Virus record (IMG/VR): IMGVR_UViG_2737471840_000004
Location: 1 to 25,134 of that record
Reading direction: 5' to 3' (one strand)
Source: a virus
Taxonomy: Duplodnaviria; Heunggongvirae; Uroviricota; Caudoviricetes
Length of the DNA stretch: 25,134 nucleotides
The position numbers and the translations under genes are program-made. The notes beneath the pieces are model-generated. The model saw only the letters and a list, made by a program, of their open reading frames with translations, was not told the DNA's origin and made no database searches. Shown piece after piece: positions 7,847 to 25,134 of the stretch; positions within the stretch are counted from its first letter, which is position 1, and each line of letters opens with the position of its first letter.

Positions 7847-9064
7847 ATGCCAACTGAATATGCTCGCGACAACCTTGGTCGCTATCAGACTGATGGATTA
7901 AGTGCAAAAGACTTTAACAAGGTCTTCGATCTTATCCGTAAACAGCAGCGTCAGAATCGGCGAAACGCGCGACGTACACTCACCCCAAGGATTATGGGGA
8001 TGCGTAACCGCGAACTTGAGGCATTCCTCAGCCTTGGGAAAAAGAAAGATGGCACCTACTTTACGCCCGAAGATATACGCAGCTTCAACACCTCAAGGCA
8101 GGCTCATAAAACAAAATTCAAGAGCACGGTACCCGGCATTACCTATGCTCAGCTGGTGGCGCAGTCCACCAGCATTGATATAAAACGCGCTAACAACAAA
8201 GTTTCTGATGGCACAGGGATCAAAGCCGCGACATTCCTCGGGCTAAAACACAACCTTGCATTGATATCTGTTAATGCCTCGGATGAGTCGGTCCACCAGC
8301 ATCACCGTGTCAGAATTCGATTTGAGGAATGGGATAAAGCCGTTGAGGATATTGCTGAAGACGGTGCGAAAAAAGCCCGAATCGCTGCCGATCTCTGCAA
8401 GGGCCGGGTATCTTTCGACTGTGATTGTGGACGCCATCAATACTGGTATCGTTATATGGCCACTGCTGGTAACTATGCTGTCGCGCCGCCAAAAGAGTAT
8501 GCCTTCCCCAAGATCCGCAACCCTGATCTGACTGGTGTAGCCTGCAAACATGTGTTGCACGCTATGACGCGTTTTCAGTCTCCCACATGGCACAAGGCCA
8601 TCATTATTGCCCTGGAAAAAGCAGCTGAACAGGTAGCCTTCGGCGATGACAAGCGGAAGACAACAACCTATTTCAAAGGCGAACTGGCTAAATCGCTCGC
8701 GCGCAACCGGACAACAACGACGGATCAGGCTAAAGCTGCGCGTGAGTATGAGCTGTATCTGAAATCTCAGGATGCATTAGGCAAAAAACTACGCGCCAAA
8801 GATAGCGCCACGGACAACGTTCGCCGGTTGTTAAAAAAAGCTCGCACCACGGCAAACAGGAAGAATGCCGAACTAAAAGCATCGCGGGTGAGGGAAGCCC
8901 AGGCTCGCGCTGAAGCCGACGCCCTCAAAAAAGCCCTGCAAACGCAGGCGAACAACCTCATAAAGTTTTTCATGAGTCAGGGAATGGACAAGGCCGCTGC
9001 CACTGCGCAGGCGCGAAGCATTCTTGAGACACAAATTAACGAAGCCCGTAAACGGAAAGGATAA
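7847..9064 (+). CDS. SWIM-type zinc-finger protein with basic coiled-coil tail
   Basis: 405-aa ORF; FDCDCGRHQYW...GVACKHVLHA fits CxCxnCxH; C-terminal 120 aa Lys/Arg/Ala-rich; AGGGA upstream of ATG. Confidence 0.65.
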   Translation: MPTEYARDNLGRYQTDGLSAKDFNKVFDLIRKQQRQNRRNARRTLTPRIMGMRNRELEAFLSLGKKKDGTYFTPEDIRSFNTSRQAHKTKFKSTVPGITYAQLVAQSTSIDIKRANNKVSDGTGIKAATFLGLKHNLALISVNASDESVHQHHRVRIRFEEWDKAVEDIAEDGAKKARIAADLCKGRVSFDCDCGRHQYWYRYMATAGNYAVAPPKEYAFPKIRNPDLTGVACKHVLHAMTRFQSPTWHKAIIIALEKAAEQVAFGDDKRKTTTYFKGELAKSLARNRTTTTDQAKAAREYELYLKSQDALGKKLRAKDSATDNVRRLLKKARTTANRKNAELKASRVREAQARAEADALKKALQTQANNLIKFFMSQGMDKAAATAQARSILETQINEARKRKG

Positions 9065-12211
<3,147 letters not shown>

Positions 12212-12212
12212 G

Positions 12213-12240
12213 AAAAGCCCGGCGATCGGGCTTTTCTTTT
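12213..12240. terminator. bidirectional rho-independent terminator
   Basis: aaaa-gcccg-gcgat-cgggc-ttttctttt: 5-bp GC stem flanked by A-run and T-run, between convergent genes. Confidence 0.7.
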
Positions 12241-12256
12241 ATAATGGGTTCAATTT

Positions 12257-13255
12257 TTATCCGTTACCGCACGACGGTTTCTGCGTGATAAACGTTTCAA
12301 GCATCTTTTCCGCGATTGCCGACCAGGTGTGACACTGGACCTTTTCAGCATTTTTCACGCGATCAACGCGAGCAATAACCTCATCCCAATCAATCCGCGA
12401 CTTGATAACCATATGGTTCACCAACTCCAGGCGATCTGGCGGAAGGCAATCGGGCGGCGTTAATATCAACGCTCCACACATTGCCGCCTCAAGAACAGTT
12501 AATCCAAGGCTTTCGGGATGCGTAACGATAAAAACGTCACTCTTACGCAATTCAGCTGCAAATTCGGTTGCTGGTACCGGAGTCCGTCTGTATGGGGTTA
12601 CCGAAATATTCCCCAGCTCAATGGTAACCAATCCGTCATCGGTCAGCGTTCTGGCCTCATACGGAACGGTCAGGCGCTGAAGGTTCATAAGGATACTTAA
12701 GGAGTGATCAAACCCACTAACATCAAATGCCGCGTGGTCTACAAAAATACGCAGAACATCGTCTGTTTTGGTTTCCAGATGGAACAGCTCCTGATTCGCT
12801 GCCCATCCAACATGTTTGTTAAAACGATTATGACGCTCTAACCTGCCGGGATTATCCAGGTACCGCCAGGTATCATCGCGGACAGTAAAAGTAATATCGA
12901 CTGGTGCCGAATCCAGCATAGAACCGTCGTATACCTGGGCTACCCATCCAGTGAATCGACGACGCAGTTGCACGCCTATTTCCCTGGGCACCGTAGTAAA
13001 ATACCGCAATCCTGGCGCTAAAATGGCCTTCGCAGAACATGCGGTCGCAGCAGTCAACACAGCTTCAACATAATCCTCCGGGCTTTCGACGCCGGGGGAA
13101 TATGGACGATGGTATTGCAATGTTACCCCTGCCTCACTAAAGGCGCAGGCCAGGTTATAAGCCCACATTTCCGTATATGTTTTCACATCACTGATAGCTT
13201 CAAATTTTCGCCCAATGATCAGGATGTTCATCGGCTTTTCCTCATTCCATTGCAT
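12257..13255 (-). CDS. GT-B fold glycosyltransferase (GT4-like)
   Basis: 332-aa ORF; C-terminal HPESLGLTVLEAAMCGALILTP resembles the GT1/GT4 donor-binding signature; TAATG start/stop overlap with the DnaB gene. Confidence 0.75.
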   Translation of the reverse strand: MQWNEEKPMNILIIGRKFEAISDVKTYTEMWAYNLACAFSEAGVTLQYHRPYSPGVESPEDYVEAVLTAATACSAKAILAPGLRYFTTVPREIGVQLRRRFTGWVAQVYDGSMLDSAPVDITFTVRDDTWRYLDNPGRLERHNRFNKHVGWAANQELFHLETKTDDVLRIFVDHAAFDVSGFDHSLSILMNLQRLTVPYEARTLTDDGLVTIELGNISVTPYRRTPVPATEFAAELRKSDVFIVTHPESLGLTVLEAAMCGALILTPPDCLPPDRLELVNHMVIKSRIDWDEVIARVDRVKNAEKVQCHTWSAIAEKMLETFITQKPSCGNG

Positions 13256-14619
13256 TAATAATCCTCTTGCCAGTCAGCACCAGCATAGTTATCAAACCGT
13301 GAGTATTGGCCGTTAAAAGCCAATCTCACCGTGCCAATTGGGCCATTTCGTTGCTTTCCGATAATCACCTCGGCAATGCCCTTCATTTCGCTATCCGGGT
13401 GATAAACTTCGTCGCGATACAGAAACATGATCAGGTCTGCGTCCTGCTCAATTGCTCCTGATTCACGTAAATCTGAATTTACCGGTCGTTTGTCCGCACG
13501 CTGTTCAAGCGATCGATTAAGTTGAGACAATGCCACCACCGGTACTTGTAATTCCTTCGCCAAAGCCTTCAGTGAGCGAGAAATCTCGGCAATTTCCAGC
13601 GTTCGGTTATCTTGCAGCTCGGGGACGCGCATAAGTTGCAGGTAGTCGATCATAATCATGCTCAAACCACCATTTTCTTTATAAACACGACGAGCGCGGG
13701 AACGAAGCTCTGTAGGTGTCAGGGCGCTTGAGTCATCAATAAAAATATTCTGCTTGTCCAACAGAATCCCCATTGCGCCAGAAACCCGCGCCCAATCCTC
13801 GTCGTTAAGTTGCCCTGTTCGAATACGAGTCTGATCAACGCGTGCAAGAGAAGCCAGTGAGCGCATCATCAGCTGGTGGCTCGGCATCTCAAGGCTAAAA
13901 ACCAATACGGGCTTATCGTTACGGACTGCGGCATTTTCGACGAGATTCATCGCAAACGTAGTCTTCCCCATCGATGGGCGGGCGGCGACAATAATGAGAT
14001 CGGACGCCTGAAGTCCTGCTGTCTTCTTATTGAGATCGGTAAATCCGGTATCAAGCCCCGTTACACCATCATGCGGTCGCTGAAACAACTCTTCTATGCG
14101 AGATACCGTTGCATCGAGAATGCTGGCGATATCTTTTGGACCATTACCGCTCTTTTGTCGTTTTTCAGCTATTTCAAAAACGCGGCGCTCGGCCATATCC
14201 AGCAATTCATTGCTGCCCCTGCCATCCTGCGCATATCCAGCTTCAGCTATTTCATTTGCGACGGAAATCATTTCACGAACAACCGCGCGTTCACGAACGA
14301 TATCCGCATAAGCACAAATATTTGCCGCGCTGGGCGTGTTCTTTGACATCTCCGCAAGGTACGCAAAACCACCGGCGCGTTCTAATTTACCGTTCTGTTC
14401 AAGTGCTTCAGCAAGTGTTATCAAATCAATCGGTTTGCCATGACTTAATAACCTCTCCATCTCACTGAAAATTTCACGATGAGCACTGGTATAAAAATCA
14501 TCAGCAACTATACGATCTGCAACTTCATCCCAGCGGCAGTTATCAAGCATTAAGCCACCAAGTACAGCTTGTTCTGCACTAAGGGAGTTTGGCATGGATT
14601 CAAGAGGGGATGCAGACAT
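13255..14619 (-). CDS. dnaB: DnaB-family replicative DNA helicase
   Basis: Walker A ARPSMGKTTFAMNL; N-terminal SAEQAVLGGLMLD is DnaB-like; ATG 14619 preferred (GGAG upstream) over track GTG 14625. Confidence 0.9.
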   Translation of the reverse strand: MSASPLESMPNSLSAEQAVLGGLMLDNCRWDEVADRIVADDFYTSAHREIFSEMERLLSHGKPIDLITLAEALEQNGKLERAGGFAYLAEMSKNTPSAANICAYADIVRERAVVREMISVANEIAEAGYAQDGRGSNELLDMAERRVFEIAEKRQKSGNGPKDIASILDATVSRIEELFQRPHDGVTGLDTGFTDLNKKTAGLQASDLIIVAARPSMGKTTFAMNLVENAAVRNDKPVLVFSLEMPSHQLMMRSLASLARVDQTRIRTGQLNDEDWARVSGAMGILLDKQNIFIDDSSALTPTELRSRARRVYKENGGLSMIMIDYLQLMRVPELQDNRTLEIAEISRSLKALAKELQVPVVALSQLNRSLEQRADKRPVNSDLRESGAIEQDADLIMFLYRDEVYHPDSEMKGIAEVIIGKQRNGPIGTVRLAFNGQYSRFDNYAGADWQEDY

Positions 14620-14904
14620 TAGCACTCCACCCAGGCGTGCTGAATGTCAGATATAATCGGCATACTCAAATCACTCCTAACGATATGAGTCATCACCAGA
14701 AAATCAGGATTAATGCGCCGGACTCTTCCCGGCTGTCACACCGAATCGCCAGGATGGTGAGTCCCTGTATCCGCTATCCCTCCAACGGTGACTTGCACAT
14801 TCCGGCTACCTGGTTTGTTGCCTGAGCTAGGGGAAAAGGTAACCCCTTTAACGTCACCAGACCGCTAACGACGCATGTGCCAGACGCCGTGTTACAACCA
14901 AATA

Positions 14905-14980
14905 TGGTGGCCCCTACCGGACTTGAACCGGTGACCGTGCGATTATGAGTCGCCAGCTCTAACCACTGAGCTAAAGGGCC
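14905..14980 (-). tRNA. tRNA with CAU anticodon (Met, or Ile2 if lysidine-modified)
   Basis: Hand-folded 76-nt cloverleaf: GGCCCTT acceptor, GCTC/GAGC D-stem, anticodon loop CUCAUAA, TTCAAGT T-loop, encoded CCA. From memory it resembles ileX-type tRNA-Ile2. Confidence 0.85.
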
Positions 14981-14983
14981 GGA

Positions 14984-15091
14984 TTACTGTTTCCTAAGTG
15001 CTTCAATGGCGCTAACAATACCGCCTACAACTATGGCAACAATGATAATGAGAACAATTGGATACTTATCTGCAAAATCCCAGAAGCTCAT
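14984..15091 (-). CDS. mini membrane protein (35 aa)
   Basis: Hand translation MSFWDFADKYPIVLIIIVAIVVGGIVSAIEALRKQ; start overlaps the stop of the upstream mini-ORF; stop 3 nt before the tRNA. Confidence 0.4.
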   Translation of the reverse strand: MSFWDFADKYPIVLIIIVAIVVGGIVSAIEALRKQ

Positions 15092-15255
15092 CACTGATCC
15101 TTCGAGGCTGGTTTAAATATCGGCCATACCAATGTTACGGCTACTGCTACCAACGCCCCGTCGGATAAAACCGACAGGATTGTGCTGGTGAAATCCACCA
15201 GCACAGATAGCACGAGAAAAACCAAAGCCAGAATTAGACGTGCTTTTATAACCAT
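15091..15255 (-). CDS. mini membrane protein (54 aa)
   Basis: Hand translation MVIKARLILALVFLVLSVLVDFTSTILSVLSDGALVAVAVTLVWPIFKPASKDQ; ATG overlaps the TerB-like stop. Confidence 0.4.
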   Translation of the reverse strand: MVIKARLILALVFLVLSVLVDFTSTILSVLSDGALVAVAVTLVWPIFKPASKDQ

Positions 15256-15680
15256 CAGATATACTGTTCCAGTGGCAATTGAAGAGCCTGGGCAATTTTC
15301 TTCAATTGCTCCTGCTCTTCTGCCCCAATGCCATCCTGGTCAGCAATATCAATGCATAGGCACAGAACATCTACCGCATCATTAGTTCCAGACACGTCAG
15401 CCAGTTCACGTAAAGCCTGGGCATTCGCTCGGCGCGGCGAGGCTTCATATTGAGCGCGAATATTGGCGCTCATCTGGGCAATTTCACCGGAGAACGGCGC
15501 AAAGGCAGGAAGTGCTGCAATGGTTTTTTCCAATACTGCAATTTCTTTCGCATCGCAGGTGCCGTCAGAGTATGCAATGGAATATGCGCCCCAGACAGTC
15601 GCTTCCACCGCATCACGGTTTTCCATTTTCTTGACTCCGCCAGCCGCTTTGCGGAATTTCTTTTTGAGAATGCCGAGCAT
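15255..15680 (-). CDS. TerB-like domain protein
   Basis: SDGTCDAKEIAVLEKTI and IADQDGIGAEEQEQLKKIAQALQL match the paired TerB acidic motifs; alternative ATG at 15626 (GGAG upstream). Confidence 0.65.
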   Translation of the reverse strand: MLGILKKKFRKAAGGVKKMENRDAVEATVWGAYSIAYSDGTCDAKEIAVLEKTIAALPAFAPFSGEIAQMSANIRAQYEASPRRANAQALRELADVSGTNDAVDVLCLCIDIADQDGIGAEEQEQLKKIAQALQLPLEQYI

Positions 15681-16529
15681 TTATTAACCTCATTACTGGT
15701 TGGGAAATAAGGTTGCGGTGCCGGGTGCCTCCCGGTGTCCTTTGGCTGGTTATCCACCGTGGACGGGGAAATAAGGAGAAATAATGGACAGATATAACCA
15801 TTTCCCCGCGTGCGCTTAGCCGCATTCACCGCAACGGAAAGAGCATTCCTAGTGGACCTGTAGATTGGGATATGAACCCGTTACAGGAGAATGCTCTTAC
15901 CTGTTACGTGCTCCGTTTCGTGGAGCTAACGGCGGGTGATCGGGCCGCACCAGACTGGACTTATTTCAGCGTTATGCTCATGCCAGAGAATCAAACTGTG
16001 ATGGTCGGTGCTGAACTCCGACACAGGGTTGTAGCAAGCCCCGCAAAGCGCGCACTACTGTAGTTGCGGCACATCAGCCTGTGCATTCACCACAATGTTG
16101 AGAACACTGGTTGTCACGCTGCAACGCAACATTTATTCGTAGATTGGGATATGACCCCGTTACGCCAGTGTTCTCAACGTTGTAGTGCCGGTTACGGTTC
16201 CGGCCAGGCCTCTTCCTCAACGGGGTGTTCTCCATACGGACTACCGTTTATTGGTCGTTCCTGCGGTTTATGTTGTGAAGCCAGATGCTTATCTTCTGGT
16301 TGCTTCAAAGAGCTGCACTTCATCACAACGGTAAGAGCACTCGATGCATTTAAGCCAAGCCCCATAAGGGAGAATGCCCTTACCTGTTGTGTTGTGATGA
16401 CCGGTGCTGATCTCCGGCTTGCGGTTATTTCAGACTCTCACGGGCGTTTAATTGCCCCGCCGAACAGCTCTTTTCCGCAATAGCTGCAATGTCTTTCGCG
16501 CATCAGCCTGCGCATTCATCACAACGGTA

Positions 16530-16607
16530 AGGGTACTTCGTAGGGATTCGAACCCTCTGCCAAGCTCGGCGATCTCCGACGTCGCAAAATACCCTTACCT
16601 GTTGTGC
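16530..16607 (-). pseudogene. tRNA-like remnant (acceptor plus T-arm, no anticodon arm)
   Basis: Minus strand has GGTTCGAATCC T-loop and a TATTTTG/CGAAGTA acceptor-like pairing but only 27 nt where 41 are needed, and no CCA. Confidence 0.3.
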
Positions 16608-16683
16608 TGGTGCCGATTAACGGACTCGAACCGCTGACATCCTGCTTACAAGGCAGGCGCTCTACCAACTGAGCTAAACCGGC
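16608..16683 (-). tRNA. tRNA-Thr (anticodon UGU)
   Basis: Hand-folded 76-nt cloverleaf: GCCGGTT/AATCGGC acceptor, anticodon stem CCTGC/GCAGG, loop CUUGUAA, TTCGAGT T-loop, encoded CCA. Confidence 0.85.
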
Positions 16684-16685
16684 AT

Positions 16686-16761
16686 TGGCGATGGTGGATG
16701 GATTTGAACCATCGACCCGTTGATTAACAGTCAACCGCTCTAACCGCTGAGCTACACCATC
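16686..16761 (-). tRNA. tRNA-Asn (anticodon GUU)
   Basis: Hand-folded 76-nt cloverleaf: perfect GATGGTG/CACCATC acceptor, anticodon stem GTTGA/TCAAC, loop CUGUUAA, TTCAAAT T-loop, encoded CCA; 2 nt from tRNA-Thr. Confidence 0.85.
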
Positions 16762-17226
16762 ACTTGCCGGGTACGTCTCCGGCGAGGGCTTCCACCTCCG
16801 TATGCTTTTCGGCGCACCGCGCCCTGGCTGCAATTCGGTAACAGGGGATGCACAACCCTGGCTTCCAGCGTGATTAGCGCCTTCAGCATGACGGGATATA
16901 CCCGTAAATTCGTGGAACTGTACCCAAAGTGCTGTTAAGCACCGCTGTTACGCTGAAAAGAAAACGCAACAGGAAAGGACGCTGACCAACAGATGGCCCC
17001 TTCTCGTTCATCTGGTTAATCACACCAGCGCCCTTACCTGTTGTGCCTCCCCGTTCCCTAATACACAGACGGGGACACTCTGCGGTCGATTTTTTGACGG
17101 GGGACGACTCATACCCCGTGGCGTCTGGCTTCTTAGGCCGCTACCATCATCAGATCATCGTTTGCATTTACTTTAATGGTCAGTTTCTAAACCGCCGCAA
17201 AGTCGCTAACCATGACGAAAACCCTG

Positions 17227-17252
17227 AAAAAAACGCCCACCCGAAGATGGGC
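17227..17252 (-). terminator. rho-independent terminator on minus strand
   Basis: Minus strand GCCCATC-TTCG-GGTGGGC (7-bp stem with one G-U pair) followed by GTTTTTTT; in the plus sense the wobble becomes a C-A mismatch. Confidence 0.55.
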
Positions 17253-17409
17253 AAACTGGAAGCTCGTAACGCACTTCGGCGTTGCCACTTAGGCGCATGG
17301 TCAACCTGGCAACTCGGTGGTTTGTCTGGGAGGACTAGGCCCAGCCATGCTTACCGCCGCGCCTGTCGCGGCTAACAGCTAAATCGCTCTATAAATCACG
17401 ATTCATTGA

Positions 17410-17443
17410 GGCGATATTACACTAATAAATTTATTAGAGCAAT
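17410..17443 (-). promoter_or_regulatory. putative leftward promoter with palindromic operator
   Basis: Minus strand TTGCTC, 17 nt, TAATAT; the core motif is part of the perfect 16-bp palindrome CTAATAAATTTATTAG (17422-17437) and overlaps the last codons of the methyltransferase gene. Confidence 0.45.
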
Positions 17444-19698
17444 ATACCCAAAACGTCATGAGCTACACCTCGAGTGTCCCCCTTACAAGACACAGAACGT
17501 CTGGCAAAAAGAGGTTCCACTCTGAAGCCACTGTCATGATAAAGCTCTCTGATGTTTGGCGCGCCACTGTTAGTAATGAGAACCTTTGCACCTCGACGAT
17601 GAGCATCCGTCAACAGAGACACCAGGCGTTTTTGCTCTTCAAACTTAAAGTCATGACCGGAATAGTTCGTGAATCCCTCTGTATTTGGAAGCGGTTCATA
17701 CGGCGGATCGCAAAAGATGACATCTCCTTCTCCGGCAGCTTCAATCACCGCAGCAAAATCACCGCATACAAACTCAGACCGCCCTTCCGCACCGAGGAAG
17801 GCTTCCATCTCCTGTAATGGGAAATACGGAGTTTTATACTTCCCATAACCGACATTGAACTCACCGGCCTGGTTGTAACGCGTCAATCCGTTAAAACAAT
17901 GTCGGTTCAGGAACAAAAACGCCGCTGCGCGATGTAAATCATCATAGACTTGTTTGTTAAACGCATTCCGTACTGCCAGGTATCCTTCCTGTGTGTTGTA
18001 GTCCTGGAAGAAACGATGTGCCAGAGTGATAAGTGAATGCGCCTCGCGTTGCAGAGTCTTGTAAAAGTTAATCAGGTCAGCATTCACATCATTTAGCAGA
18101 TTTTCCTGGTATCCGGCATTCATGAAGACAGCTCCGCCACCAACGAAAGGTTCAATCAGGCGCTTCCCTTCTGGCAAATAGCGAAAGATTTGTTCCAGAA
18201 CACCAAATTTTCCACCAGCCCATTTGAATATGGACCGTTCGAATTCTGCCGCTGGTTTAACTTTTCGCTCTTTTGTTTCACTTCCTTCTTTCTGCCGACA
18301 TACGGCCTTAGTAATCCGATCGCCAATCCAGCGCATTACTGGTATTGCCATACTATTGCCGATCGCTTTGTAACGCGGTCCGTCAGCTGCAAGCATCGCG
18401 GCCTCTTCTTCGCTTAAATCTGGATAGTGATTGCGAAGATATGCCAGTTCATCTGAATTAACTTTTTTACGCTTTTCCGTCGGGATCAACGTATGCCCAT
18501 CAGGAAAACCTTGCAGCCTTTCACATTCGACAGGGGTAAGACGGCGGACAGCTACTTCTGCGTTTCTTACTTCATAGCAAACAGCTGTTGGATTTTTAGC
18601 CATTAGAGATGGTGAAGTATTCTTAGTTGCAGCATGTTGTGTACCGCTCATACGCTCAGGAAAAGCCAATGTAACAAGATGCTCATGGCTTTCTTGCTCA
18701 CGTGCCCGCAATGTACCATGCCCTTCTGACCAAAAACCTGCTCCTGTGCTGCTAAAAACGGCAAGGTCAGTGGCATCTTTAAAATCTCTTGCCTTTACTG
18801 TCGATGCGGTTTCATCGTCAATATATTCCCCAAATGCTGCCATCCTGAAAGCGTTTACGGCTTTCGTCGATTTCATACCGGGTGGCATGTCAGCGTGTAG
18901 GCATGGATTTAGGCTTTCGCCACTGATTGCAGCGCCATTTGCAATAATGGCGGAAGCGATTTCCTTCTTTTTTCGGCTCGGCGCAATATTCCGGCGCACG
19001 CCTTCGAACTCAAAAAGTACCGTTGCGGGATCGAGGTCTGTTCGAGCACTTGCGACAACAAACACGCGTCGGCGTCGTTGTGCCACTCCGAAGTATTGGG
19101 CATCAAGGATTCTCCAGGCCACCTTTCGCTGCGGTCCATAAATACAACCACACTGTGGCCACTTTGGAGCATGGCAACCGGTTTTGCCATCCCACCGCCA
19201 GAACGCGTTACTTTTTCCTGATTCAGGTCGATCACCTGGTTCAAATGGCGCATCTTCTCCAGCCAATCCGGCAAGGAAACATCCGAAGGCGTTATCTGCC
19301 GATGACAAAACTCCTGGGACATTTTCCCAGACGATAACTGTCGGTTTGAGAAATGACTCAGCCCGTTTGTCGTCAATTGCATTTGCAAGCTCCACATACT
19401 TTAAAGTTAGCGCGCCACGCTCATCATCAAGCCCACCACGTAATCCAGCGATACTGAATGCCTGACAAGGTGTTCCCCCGACGAGCACATCAGGGGATTC
19501 GATTTCCCCAGCCAGGACTTTTTTGGCAAGTTTTGTCATGTCGCCAAGGTTGGCGACATGGGGCCAGCGGTGCGCAAGAACGGCAGATGGAAAAGGCTCG
19601 ATTTCAGCAAACCACGCCGGACGCATACCCAACGGTTCCCAGGCAATACTCGCGGCTTCAATTCCACTGCAAACAGATCCATAGCACAGCTCTTTCAC
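17434..19698 (-). CDS. bifunctional DNA methyltransferase: N-terminal C5-cytosine MTase fused to C-terminal Dam-like N6-adenine MTase
   Basis: 754-aa ORF. N-terminal half has C5-MTase motifs ([48 protein letters not shown]); C-terminal ~270 aa has Dam-type FKWAGGK and DPPY. ATGA overlap with rdgC. Confidence 0.9.
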
Positions 19699-23635: not shown

Positions 23636-23830
23636 AAACGTTTCGCATTCAGAAGAGGGGCAATCGACTTTCTGGTTTCAGAAAGCCCTTCATCATAGAG
23701 AACTCCGATGAGTGCCAAATGCGGGAACTACGCCGCTAATTATGCTTAATTCTTGCTTTTAGCAGGCGGTGAATAAAAAGGTTGAAATTCATTTTCTTCC
23801 GGGCAAAAATGCCATTTCACACATTAGCTT

Positions 23831-23874
23831 TGCAGGACGACCTGCAAACGCTTCTTTCACCGGGGACGGCCCCA
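23831..23874 (+). promoter_or_regulatory. guanidine-II riboswitch (mini-ykkC) upstream of sugE/gdx
   Basis: Two hairpins with ACGR tetraloops: tgcagg-ACGA-cctgca (23831-23846) and gggg-ACGG-cccc (23862-23873), 15-nt linker, then GGAG and ATG at 23892. Confidence 0.6.
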
Positions 23875-23938: not shown

Positions 23939-25134
23939 TAAGCGTCAACGGAGCACCGTATTGACGCTTATTTATTGGTGAGTACTACGTTCCATGGCAG
24001 GAGTTCGTCAACTCGGTTGGAAGGCCATTCCGGCAGTACGCTCAGGATATGGCGCATATACGCTTCCGGATCGATACCGTTCAGACGGCAGGTGCCGATC
24101 AGCCCGTACAACAGTGCTCCACGCTCGCCGCCGTGATCGCTGCCAAAGAACATAAAGTTTTTCTTTCCGAGACAGACTGCACGAAGCGCTCTTTCCGCAG
24201 CATTATTATCCGCCTCCGCCAGACCGTCATCACTGTAATAACAGAGGGCATCCCACTGATTCAGTACATAGCTGAACGCTTCGCCCAGTCTGGATTTTTT
24301 CGACAGCGTACCATTCTTCTCCACCATCCATTCATGCAGCGACGTCAGTAACACTTTGCTTCGCTGCTGCCTGACGGCAAGACGCTCTGACTCCGGTAAT
24401 CCCCGTATTTCATCCTCGATGGCGTACAGTTCACTGATTCGCTTCAGGGCTTCTTCTGCCGTCGCACTTTTGCTGCTGATGTATACATCGTGGATTTTTC
24501 GCCGGGCATGGGCCCAGCACGCAACTTCTGTCAGTGCACCACCTTCACGTTCTGCACTGAACAACCTGTCGTAACCTGTGAACGCATCCGCCTGCAGGAT
24601 ACCCCGGAAGGGGCGGAGGTGTTGCTCCGGGTGTTTCCCCTGCCGGTTCGGCGAGTACGCGAACCAGACCGCTGGAGGAGATGACGAACCCACATTGCGA
24701 TCATCCCGGACATACGTCCAGATACGCCCTGTTTTCGCCTTTTTCTGACCCGGTGCCAGTACCTTTACCGGTGTGTCATCAGTGTGAACCTTGCGGGTGT
24801 TCATTACATAACGGTACAGGGCATCATTCACCGGTGTCATTAACTGGCAGCACGCGTCAACCCAGTTGGAGAGTAAGGCCCGGCTCAGTTCGACACCCTG
24901 GCGGGCAAAGATTTCACTCTGACGATACAGTGGCAGATGTTCGCAGTATTTTCCCGTTAACACGCGGGCAAGTAATCCGGGGCCCGCGATACCACGCTCT
25001 ATCGGGCGGGACGGCGCCGGTGCTTCAACAATACAGTCACATTTTGTACAGGCTTTTTTTACCCGTTCTGTGCGGATCACTTTCAGGGCACTGCTCACCA
25101 GTTCCAGCTGTTCAGCGCTGACTTCCCCCAGATA
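23938..25134. mobile_element. IS66-family insertion sequence, right end only (continues beyond right edge)
   Basis: Terminus begins GTAAGCGTCAACGG (IS66-family ends begin GTAA); contains a minus-strand IS66 transposase ORF whose stop lies 30 bp inside the end. Confidence 0.8.
23968..25134 (-). CDS. IS66-family transposase (TnpC), C-terminal portion
   Basis: Contains CWAHARRK and DDTPVKVLAPGQKKAKTGRIW; the frame stays open upstream of the track start (a GTG at 25098) to the window edge, so the N-terminus is outside the window. Confidence 0.9.
   Translation of the reverse strand, partial: YLGEVSAEQLELVSSALKVIRTERVKKACTKCDCIVEAPAPSRPIERGIAGPGLLARVLTGKYCEHLPLYRQSEIFARQGVELSRALLSNWVDACCQLMTPVNDALYRYVMNTRKVHTDDTPVKVLAPGQKKAKTGRIWTYVRDDRNVGSSSPPAVWFAYSPNRQGKHPEQHLRPFRGILQADAFTGYDRLFSAEREGGALTEVACWAHARRKIHDVYISSKSATAEEALKRISELYAIEDEIRGLPESERLAVRQQRSKVLLTSLHEWMVEKNGTLSKKSRLGEAFSYVLNQWDALCYYSDDGLAEADNNAAERALRAVCLGKKNFMFFGSDHGGERGALLYGLIGTCRLNGIDPEAYMRHILSVLPEWPSNRVDELLPWNVVLTNK

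Follow-up and report, generated by a model that had tools for sequence, protein, structure and literature searches.

The ban–dbn gene pair of a P1-like phage and a predicted phage glycan cassette

The subject of this analysis is a pair of genes on the minus strand of a Caudoviricetes genome record, IMG/VR virus record IMGVR_UViG_2737471840_000004 (positions 1 to 25,134; this whole stretch is referred to as the window). The pair consists of a DnaB-type helicase gene and, directly behind it, a glycosyltransferase gene whose start codon overlaps the helicase stop codon. The original prediction, made from the letters of this DNA, took the overlap as a hint that the transferase glycosylates phage DNA while it is being replicated. 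The 2.8-kb stretch that carries the pair is 96.9–98.4% identical at the nucleotide level to phages P1, P7, RCS47, SJ46 and their relatives. This alignment identifies the two genes as ban and dbn, the last genes at the 3' end of the P1 ban operon. The explanation that we favour overall, with moderate confidence, combines this operon end with an ordinary coupling of its last two genes and with a role for Dbn as the fourth enzyme of a phage glycan-building cassette, whose other members would be PmgO, PmgP and PmgQ, encoded in the same window.

The end of the ban operon

The locus is made up of the following features, in the order of transcription.

17416–17443, no strand assigned: bivalent C1 operator Oban (Op72ab), overlapping the promoter region of the ban operon, at the start of an operon of about 5.2 kb that ends with dbn
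14985–15680, minus strand: tciA-tciB-tciC, upstream genes of the ban operon (P1 annotation by alignment; junctions read directly)
14905–14980, minus strand: trnI, tRNA gene with a CAT anticodon, tRNA-Ile2 in P1 (ARAGORN; Rfam tRNA, 64.7 bits; P1 annotation)
13255–14619, minus strand: ban, DnaB-family replicative helicase of 454 amino acids (Pfam, TIGR00665 and P1 annotation)
13253–13257, minus strand: TAATG stop/start overlap of ban and the long form of dbn (read directly)
12257–13255, minus strand: dbn, predicted GT-B (GT4-like, retaining-type) glycosyltransferase of 332 amino acids from the TAATG start or 324 from the methionine at position 9 (M9)
12210–12238, no strand assigned: 12-bp GC-rich hairpin between the convergent genes dbn and gene 5 (RNA fold)

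Oban consists of two matches to the C1 operator consensus, with zero and two mismatches, and is identical to the annotated P1 Oban region; the consensus is found at seven sites in the window against 0.16 expected. From this operator, about 2.8 kb upstream of ban, the operon runs through trnA and trnT, tciABC and trnI, which lies directly upstream of ban, to ban, dbn and the terminator. The gene convergent with dbn is the baseplate gene 5. The hairpin that separates the two was not reported by a simple terminator scan; direct folding showed it, with free energies of -19.1 kcal/mol on the plus strand and -18.9 kcal/mol on the minus strand (z -3.1 and -4.6, respectively). It is probably a bidirectional intrinsic terminator, stable on both strands and 3' of dbn, which bears out the earlier placement of the pair as the last unit before such an element. 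A promoter scan gave a single sigma-70-like site, which lies within ban where P2dbn is predicted in P1; with 6.5 such sites expected by chance this is no evidence for an internal promoter of dbn, and the annotated internal sigma-70 promoters of P1 are themselves predictions.

Ban combines an N-terminal DnaB domain (PF00772, 121 bits, gathering threshold 23) with a C-terminal RecA-type ATPase domain (PF03796, DnaB_C, 359.7 bits, gathering threshold 27), both above curated cutoffs, and scores 571.5 bits against TIGR00665 (cutoff 385). It is 99–100% identical in amino acid sequence across 81 P1-like loci and is annotated as ban in P1 and P7 ('dnaB analog and homolog') and as dnaB in RCS47. P1 Ban is known from classical genetics to be able to stand in for host DnaB in replication. 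The P1 record (GenBank AF234172 / NC_005856) explains dbn as 'downstream of ban', 'function unknown, possible glycosyltransferase'; the same gene is labelled 'glt' in P7, 'putative glycosyltransferase Dbn' in RCS47 and 'glycosyltransferase family 4 protein' in RefSeq. P1 has the same genes, order, overlap and terminator as the window, with point differences only at the locus, which has been annotated for about two decades and is not a new kind of system. Both genes were non-essential in a genome-wide CRISPR interference screen (PMC10695390).

The overlap of the two genes is as originally described. The ban open reading frame (ORF; 14619 to 13255) ends in GATTATTAA, and an A of its TAA stop codon opens the ATG of the 332-codon dbn ORF (13255 to 12257), so that stop and start together read TAATG at 13257–13253. 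Among the 81 P1-like loci in IMG/VR this pentamer is exact in 70 and replaced by TGATG in two, while in the remaining nine it serves another ORF of 100 amino acids. The same one-base overlap is found at the tciA/tciB and tciB/tciC junctions (TGATG in both), and ppp/pmgQ, elsewhere in the window, overlap as ATGA. The first dbn ATG, within TAATG, has a GAGGA 6 nucleotides (nt) upstream, and a second in-frame ATG (M9, 13231–13229) has a GAGGA Shine-Dalgarno sequence of its own 7 nt upstream. M9 is where most Dbn homologues begin, with the N-terminus M(K/N)ILIIG; the TAATG start may not be the sole start of dbn, or not the main one. The start of dbn is also annotated inconsistently among the reference records: in the P7 record (AF503408, L002 2659–3522) glt is only 864 nt long and begins 135 nt downstream of ban.

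The nine divergent loci (L081, positions 9702–10004; also L082–L089) have a 100-codon ORF between ban and dbn, inserted at a point that corresponds to 13231–13255 of the window. This ORF belongs to PHROG 12809 and gave no Pfam and no PADLOC match. At its start it shares TAATG with the ban stop, and at its end ATGA with the dbn start; like the long form of Dbn it opens with MQ, and where it is present dbn starts at the M9-position ATG behind an AAGGAG Shine-Dalgarno sequence. This arrangement suggests that the eight extra N-terminal codons of Dbn are a remnant of the 100-codon gene, made by deletion, and the ban/dbn overlap may be the leftover start of that lost gene. Because the ORF intervenes in these loci, Dbn evidently works without abutting ban.

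A coupling dedicated to the function of the two proteins would be expected to show overlapping stop and start codons, to lack an independent ribosome-binding site or start for the second gene, and to pair the two genes across the relatives of Dbn. The overlap is present; a GAGGA precedes both the first ATG and M9; and a search of 6–10 kb on each side of the Dbn homologues in 13 non-P1 loci (phmmer, E<1e-3) found a DnaB (Ban) homologue in none of them, the adjacency of ban and dbn being limited to close P1 relatives. Because the same overlap occurs twice more in the operon, a start at M9 is available, an ORF intervenes in nine of the 81 P1-like loci and the 13 other loci have no DnaB linkage, the ban/dbn overlap is best read as ordinary tight operon packing, normal for this genome, which implies no functional tie to replication.

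Dbn, its family and its gene neighbours

The classification of Dbn rests on structure and motif rather than on a sequence profile, since its match to Pfam Glycos_transf_1 (23.9 bits, residues 229–315 only) falls below the gathering threshold of 26.4; a scan against NCBIfam returned stray matches only. An AlphaFold2 model built with 16 homologues (predicted local distance difference test, pLDDT, 88; predicted template modelling score, pTM, 0.85) has the two Rossmann-like domains of the GT-B fold, and its best Foldseek matches are the retaining GT4-type enzymes MshA, GlgM and SPS, at about 1e-9. The C-terminal domain carries an EX7E motif (H245-P-E247-S-L-G-L-T-V-L-E255), and 59 diverse family members all keep H245, E247, E255 and G260. 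By model and motif, then, Dbn is a divergent GT4-like, retaining-type GT-B glycosyltransferase, predicted to be soluble and cytoplasmic; no hydrophobic segment or signal peptide was found in Dbn, PmgO, PmgP or PmgQ. The original naming of the two genes as DnaB helicase and GT-B glycosyltransferase was therefore correct, through profile scores for the helicase and through model and motif for the transferase, for which the profile search proposed at the time as a classifier stayed below threshold.

Dbn shares the retaining GT-B type with the GT4 enzymes of CAZy (BshA, MshA, PimA/PimB', sucrose-phosphate synthase, WaaG), at an identity of only 9–15%; it is shorter than typical members (about 320 amino acids), with a compact N-terminal domain, and forms a separate small family. 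A word-indexed search of 5.8 billion proteins returned 22 clusters, and a full hidden Markov model (HMM) scan of 1.84 billion proteins returned 376 representatives at E<1e-3. Some members (P0089, P0101, P0103, P0113, P0129 and others) are fusions of 520–630 amino acids; P0103, for example, includes a class I S-adenosylmethionine-dependent methyltransferase domain, and P0101 a second domain of GT1 type. Fusions with such domains point to glycan tailoring. Models of defence systems in PADLOC matched none of Dbn, PmgO, PmgP and PmgQ, and no paper discussing the function of Dbn was found in the literature searched.

The three proteins that accompany Dbn in other phages are encoded 6–8 kb away from dbn in the window, together with a phosphatase gene.

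5661–6323, minus strand: pmgO, MptE-like / GT42-like (CMP-ulosonic-acid transferase-like; CMP, cytidine monophosphate) predicted enzyme (Pfam MptE-like 23.4 bits, below the gathering threshold; PHROG 4603 'alpha-2,3-sialyltransferase')
5137–5763, minus strand: pmgP, second MptE-like predicted enzyme, paralogue of PmgO (Pfam MptE-like 20.9 bits, below the gathering threshold; PHROG 2111 and 4603)
4463–5155, minus strand: ppp, lambda-type Ser/Thr phosphatase (Pfam Metallophos 59.3 bits)
3765–4466, minus strand: pmgQ, predicted GT-A fold DxD glycosyltransferase, GT8/GT77-like (D79-x-D81; PHROG 1962 'glycosyltransferase')

PmgO and PmgP conserve the pattern GxGPS ... N ... D ... GxD of the MptE-like domain, and their family profile matches the sialyltransferase CstII (GT42; 1e-4) and the flagellin glycosyltransferase Maf (5mu5; 2e-3) in the Protein Data Bank (PDB). 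They share the MptE-like pattern with Maf, CstII-type GT42 enzymes and WaaZ; they are much shorter (180–220 amino acids) and below the Pfam threshold. In PmgQ D79-x-D81 is nearly invariant, and the family profile matches AgtA (GT77; 1.6e-5) and, weakly, LgtC and glycogenin in the PDB. The 'putative morphogenetic' genes pmgO, pmgP and pmgQ of P1, named HdmB, HdmC and HdmD in the P7 record, are thus predicted glycosyltransferases, two MptE/GT42-like and one of DxD GT-A type. In P1 this stretch lies downstream of the late promoter LPpmgL (upstream of pmgL), between tail genes and pmgR/pmgS. The ppp gene sits between pmgP and pmgQ in P1 only; it is absent from that position in Cronobacter phage JK004, and no ppp homologue was found in the non-P1 cassette loci. 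Together with pap (window 1621–2127, minus strand; haloacid dehalogenase (HAD)-type, like the phosphatase of polynucleotide kinase-phosphatase, PNKP), ppp flanks the glycosyltransferase genes; pap belongs to the same HAD superfamily as sugar-phosphate phosphatases.

The association of Dbn with these enzymes comes from the same 13 non-P1 loci, in which cassette partners were searched for by tblastn and HMM. A profile alignment of Dbn against viral contigs kept P1-like loci only (96–98% identity) and a scan of genome contigs yielded two loci; the contig scans were dominated by near-identical P1-like contigs, and the distant contexts were drawn from exact-protein look-ups and an annotated phage collection. 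Homologues of PmgO, PmgP and PmgQ lie within 10 kb of a Dbn homologue in L003, L004, L005, L093, L096, L097 and L099; in four of these (L004, L005, L097 and L099) they adjoin or overlap it. The order is PmgO-PmgP-Dbn-PmgQ in the lambdoid contig L097 and in the cultured 111-kb Escherichia coli phage EP_H11 (L099), PmgO-PmgP-189aa-Dbn-PmgQ in the lambdoid contig L005, and PmgP-Dbn-PmgQ-PmgO in L004. The PmgP homologues that adjoin Dbn homologues are 46–66% identical. PmgQ is the most widespread partner: it stands directly downstream of the Dbn homologue in L004, L005, L097, L098 and L099, and it is the only one of the three adjacent to Dbn in the remoter phages L092 and L098, where the two are joined by an FkbM/RfbT methyltransferase, a polysaccharide pyruvyl transferase, a GT-A Nucleotid_trans protein and an Asp2-like esterase. 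Two distant P1-like phage-plasmids (L003, L096) have PmgM-O-P-Q-S as in P1, with Dbn about 5–6 kb downstream behind two uncharacterised genes, not behind a helicase. In Citrobacter phage phiNP the cassette is found between the lysis genes and terminase; in L005 and L097 it lies directly upstream of the genes for terminase and head proteins, and in L098 it follows the head protease. In our window all four genes are present but split by tail genes. Because phiNP and JK004 carry PmgO-PmgP-PmgQ without Dbn, the latter appears to be an accessory, optional fourth enzyme. As part of the overall explanation favoured above, and held with the same moderate confidence, Dbn would belong functionally with PmgO, PmgP and PmgQ, with which it forms one contiguous, overlapping cassette in other phages.

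Two further occurrences may be recorded here. In a bacterial chromosome (L093; GCA_031981705.1, DALYVL010000004) the cassette is scattered, with PmgQ-PmgP inside a prophage lysis region, the Dbn homologue 3 kb off beside a LysR-type regulator, and the PmgO homologue 8 kb further, past a chaperone-usher fimbrial operon. Further homologues of cassette proteins are encoded by the Xanthomonas/Stenotrophomonas jumbo phages XacN1, Xoo-sp13, CM1 and RAS14, and Pelagibacter phage Mosig has a homologue of PmgQ.

The nearest non-phage homologues of Dbn, P0171 (42% identity) and P0022 (43%), are encoded in capsule loci of the ABC-transporter (kps) type, one of which has KpsM/T-like, KpsS/C (Capsule_synth), KpsD (Poly_export) and KpsE-like genes. 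In both loci the Dbn homologue lies directly beside an MptE-like protein that matches Pfam WaaZ_KDO_III, the Kdo-III transferase family of lipopolysaccharide (LPS; Kdo, 3-deoxy-D-manno-octulosonic acid), as well as the PmgO HMM (4.8e-6 and 1e-4). No nonulosonic-acid biosynthesis genes were found in these loci, which suggests that the ulosonic acid is Kdo, whose CMP form is supplied by every Gram-negative host. Side by side, the MptE-like and Dbn-like proteins resemble a module for making an (ulosonic acid)-(hexose) linkage, which phages appear to have captured and extended by PmgQ. Dbn homologues thus occupy the position of region-2 transferases in group 2-like kps loci, between kpsMT and kpsSCDE-type genes and beside a PmgO/PmgP-like enzyme; the phage copies differ in having no kpsMT, kpsE/D or kpsS/C nearby, neither in the window nor in any phage locus, and in the extra GT-A enzyme PmgQ, which was not seen in the capsule loci.

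Could dbn be a passenger gene that is decaying or has no function, stranded in the last position of the ban operon by a rearrangement? The gene stands apart from its usual cassette partners, other phages keep PmgO-PmgP-PmgQ without it, and it is dispensable for plaques in two independent studies, dbn, pmgO, pmgP and pmgQ alike being dispensable under laboratory conditions (PMC10695390, PMC9024508). These observations are outweighed by its sequence record. The ratio of nonsynonymous to synonymous polymorphism (pN/pS) of dbn is 0.13 over 53 distinct alleles, with zero internal stops, and Dbn is under purifying selection; the EX7E and other motifs are invariant in the 59 diverse members, and dbn is kept in all 81 P1-like loci recovered. 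A passenger is thus very improbable. A recent foreign insertion was ruled out as well, because the GC content of dbn, overall and at third codon positions (GC3), matches that of the neighbouring genes.

DNA, virion or envelope as the target

Spelled out, the reading put forward by the original prediction is that Dbn, made in step with the helicase, would glycosylate phage DNA at or behind the replication fork and shield it from host nucleases. The overlap and co-transcription of the two genes and the predicted cytoplasmic location of Dbn are consistent with this, and DNA is one substrate that all the diverse phages with a family member have in common. Against it, linkage to DnaB is missing in all 13 non-P1 loci and interrupted in nine of the 81 P1-like loci, and the partners, three glycosyltransferases joined in remoter phages by glycan-tailoring enzymes, fit oligosaccharide assembly rather than the glucosylation of a base: a cluster of three to four transferases with methyl-, pyruvyl- and acetyl-type tailoring enzymes is a signature of oligo- or polysaccharide assembly. 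No hydroxymethylase or hydroxylase for an acceptor base, and no other gene for a modified pyrimidine (5-hydroxymethylcytosine, 5-hydroxymethyluracil, 5-hydroxycytosine), is annotated in the P1 stretches corresponding to about positions 1–19000 of the window or in the loci of Dbn homologues, and we know of none in the remainder of the P1 genome. DNA sugar modification in the T-even phages requires such a hydroxymethylated or hydroxylated pyrimidine. The same holds for the known phage DNA sugar modifications, whose acceptor bases are made by phage enzymes (PMC13326640).

The experiment that had been proposed as a check, deletion of the transferase gene followed by a test of sensitivity to host restriction, already exists in the literature, and its outcome speaks against the claim. 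P1 phages with in-frame deletions of dbn, pmgO, pmgP, pmgQ or ppp plate normally and have the parental efficiency of plating on EcoA, EcoB and EcoK hosts (PMC9024508, Table S3, Fig. S1), a result that covers these three type I systems, with type II, type IV and other defences lying outside it. Wild-type P1 grown on an r-m- host suffers a restriction of 10- to 1000-fold, which shows its DNA to be unshielded (PMC9024508). Dbn is like the T4 alpha- and beta-glucosyltransferases (AGT, BGT) and the HY126-type 5-hydroxycytosine arabinosyltransferase (PMC13326640) in being a phage-encoded, cytoplasmic GT-B enzyme that is non-essential in permissive hosts, but differs from them in having no acceptor-base genes nearby, no restriction phenotype upon deletion, and glycosyltransferases for partners. 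No specific homology of Dbn to known DNA glycosyltransferases was found, and by the tests applied it resembles neither AGT nor BGT in its mode of action. The original prediction had also named what would speak against DNA, namely a signal peptide or membrane anchor together with homology to O-antigen or teichoic-acid transferases; Dbn has neither signal nor anchor, and its kinship with capsule transferases comes close to the second half. That Dbn has no signal or anchor adds nothing to the DNA reading, since the cytoplasmic GT-B enzymes that make capsule and LPS are likewise without them. Glycosylation of DNA in step with replication is therefore unsupported and extremely improbable, DNA in general has at most a very small chance of being the final carrier of the glycan, and the importance of the ban–dbn pair in that sense is low. 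The evidence from partners and kps relatives points instead to the cell-surface or virion targets for which the original prediction had left room.

In the favoured explanation, an operon end with ordinary coupling and Dbn as cassette enzyme, PmgO and PmgP would transfer a CMP-activated ulosonic acid during lytic growth, in enterobacteria most plausibly Kdo, the sole such donor that every host supplies. Dbn, with a donor of the UDP- or ADP-hexose type (uridine or adenosine diphosphate), and PmgQ would add hexoses; Dbn would thus act on a sugar rather than on a DNA base, and as an optional fourth step. We infer donor sugars, order of transfer and acceptor from family resemblance and context. A broader version, which we hold only tentatively and rate slightly below an even chance, is that PmgO, PmgP, PmgQ and optionally Dbn constitute a mobile cassette of three to four enzymes present in P1 and in scattered phages, among them lambdoid prophages, EP_H11 and the Xanthomonas/Stenotrophomonas jumbo phages. 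From host CMP-Kdo and UDP-sugars it would assemble a defined oligosaccharide during lytic growth, on a virion protein or on the LPS-core receptor, and pmgO, pmgP, pmgQ and dbn of P1 would be one pathway split by genome rearrangement.

As the final carrier, a virion protein is possible, though at less than an even chance. The cassette lies in late or structural modules (P1, phiNP, L005, L097, L098), the Maf, glycogenin/AgtA and GtfA-type enzymes are protein glycosyltransferases, and a precedent is seen in the virion-glycosylation clusters of mycobacteriophages (Freeman et al. 2023, cited in PMC12894461). The two are alike in having several glycosyltransferases, with an FkbM-type methyltransferase in some relatives, in a placement within or beside late or structural modules, and in being dispensable for growth; the P1-type cassette differs in its enzyme families (MptE/GT42-like, GT8/77-like, Dbn) and Gram-negative hosts, and no glycoprotein is reported for P1 in its virion proteomics and cryo-electron microscopy papers. 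Our literature search on virion glycosylation found nothing on P1-like phages. A virion target is made less probable by the occurrence of the cassette in phages of differing virion types.

The LPS core or another lipid-linked envelope glycan is almost as probable a final carrier, with capsule-locus ancestry, the WaaZ resemblance and exclusively Gram-negative hosts in its favour, and repression in lysogens, late timing and the lack of an export function against it. The rest of the probability falls to carriers other than virion protein, envelope glycan and DNA. In its full form, which we regard as unlikely, this alternative holds that the cassette, or Dbn alone as a moron, acts, on the cytoplasmic side of the inner membrane, upon a host glycan that is linked to lipid, be it the inner or outer LPS core or, in kps-positive hosts, the poly-Kdo capsule primer. 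The effect would be a changed cell surface, for example a masked P1 LPS-core receptor or an altered capsule type. The nearest cellular homologues are indeed kps region-2 genes beside the same MptE-like neighbour, with its match to WaaZ_KDO_III, and the hosts stated in the records are all Gram-negative (Escherichia, Salmonella, Citrobacter, Cronobacter, Stenotrophomonas, Xanthomonas and Pelagibacter). The interval between lysis genes and terminase is also a classic site for morons, and P1 adsorbs to the LPS core. On the other side, the cassette has no flippase, polymerase, transporter or membrane anchor, and deletion has no plating phenotype in E. coli K-12. The P1 genes stand behind C1 operators and a late promoter, and the lambdoid copies downstream of Q; under such control they would be switched off in lysogens and come on only a short time before lysis. 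The internal sigma-70 promoters that could relieve this constraint in P1 are predictions, and the single promoter-like site falls short of chance expectation.

Several points weigh against the favoured explanation. In P1 dbn is part of the early, C1-controlled ban operon while pmgO-Q stand behind a late promoter, so that the genes are not co-regulated as a single pathway predicts. The production of a glycan by these enzymes is a prediction, with donor and acceptor drawn from family resemblance and context, and the Pfam matches of Dbn, PmgO and PmgP are all below gathering thresholds. The sample of contexts is small, with 13 non-P1 loci, some of them related, and flanks of at most 10 kb. With regard to the carriers, the text of P1 virion proteomics and cryo-electron microscopy papers is silent on glycans and on dbn, a weak negative with respect to a virion protein, and expression confined to the late phase leaves little time to remodel the LPS of the outer membrane.

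The link between dbn, pmgO, pmgP and pmgQ as a conserved cassette is the only new element here, is stated in no paper that we found, and is meant to generate hypotheses: it gives four functionally unassigned P1 genes a common, testable one. If true, temperate enterobacterial phages would make a glycan, placed on virions or on the LPS receptor, which would bear on immunogenicity, host range and the use of P1-like phage-plasmids; with a virion protein as target it would be the first virion glycosylation system described for phages that infect Gram-negative bacteria.

Other features of the window

An IS66-family transposase gene (23968–25098, minus strand; DDE_Tnp_IS66, 328 bits) lies at the end of the window, and similarity to the listed P1-like records ends at about 23135, which indicates an insertion that is lacking in reference P1. 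Some 95 nt from the stop-codon end of the transposase gene, Rfam reports a match to the Guanidine-II (mini-ykkC) riboswitch (23829–23873, plus strand; 47.2 bits, gathering score 32). No transporter ORF of the small multidrug resistance (SMR)/Gdx type was recognised downstream of it, where a 100-amino-acid ORF (24049–24351) has no Pfam match; the riboswitch match may reflect two hairpins that happen to lie together where the insertion sequence ends.

The 285-nt spacer between trnI and ban was considered as a site of structured RNA and rejected, with no Rfam family and a fold z of -0.6. Within it, about 185 nt directly downstream of the tRNA(CAT) gene (14714–14900) recur in phage D6 with 91% conservation and, with about 82%, in Stx2-converting phages, which are otherwise unmatched in the region. 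Finally, from dbn to Oban the coordinates of the window and of reference P1 drift apart by a further 196 nt or so, which places an insertion or deletion in the tci/upl/plp/tRNA region (about 14900–17416).

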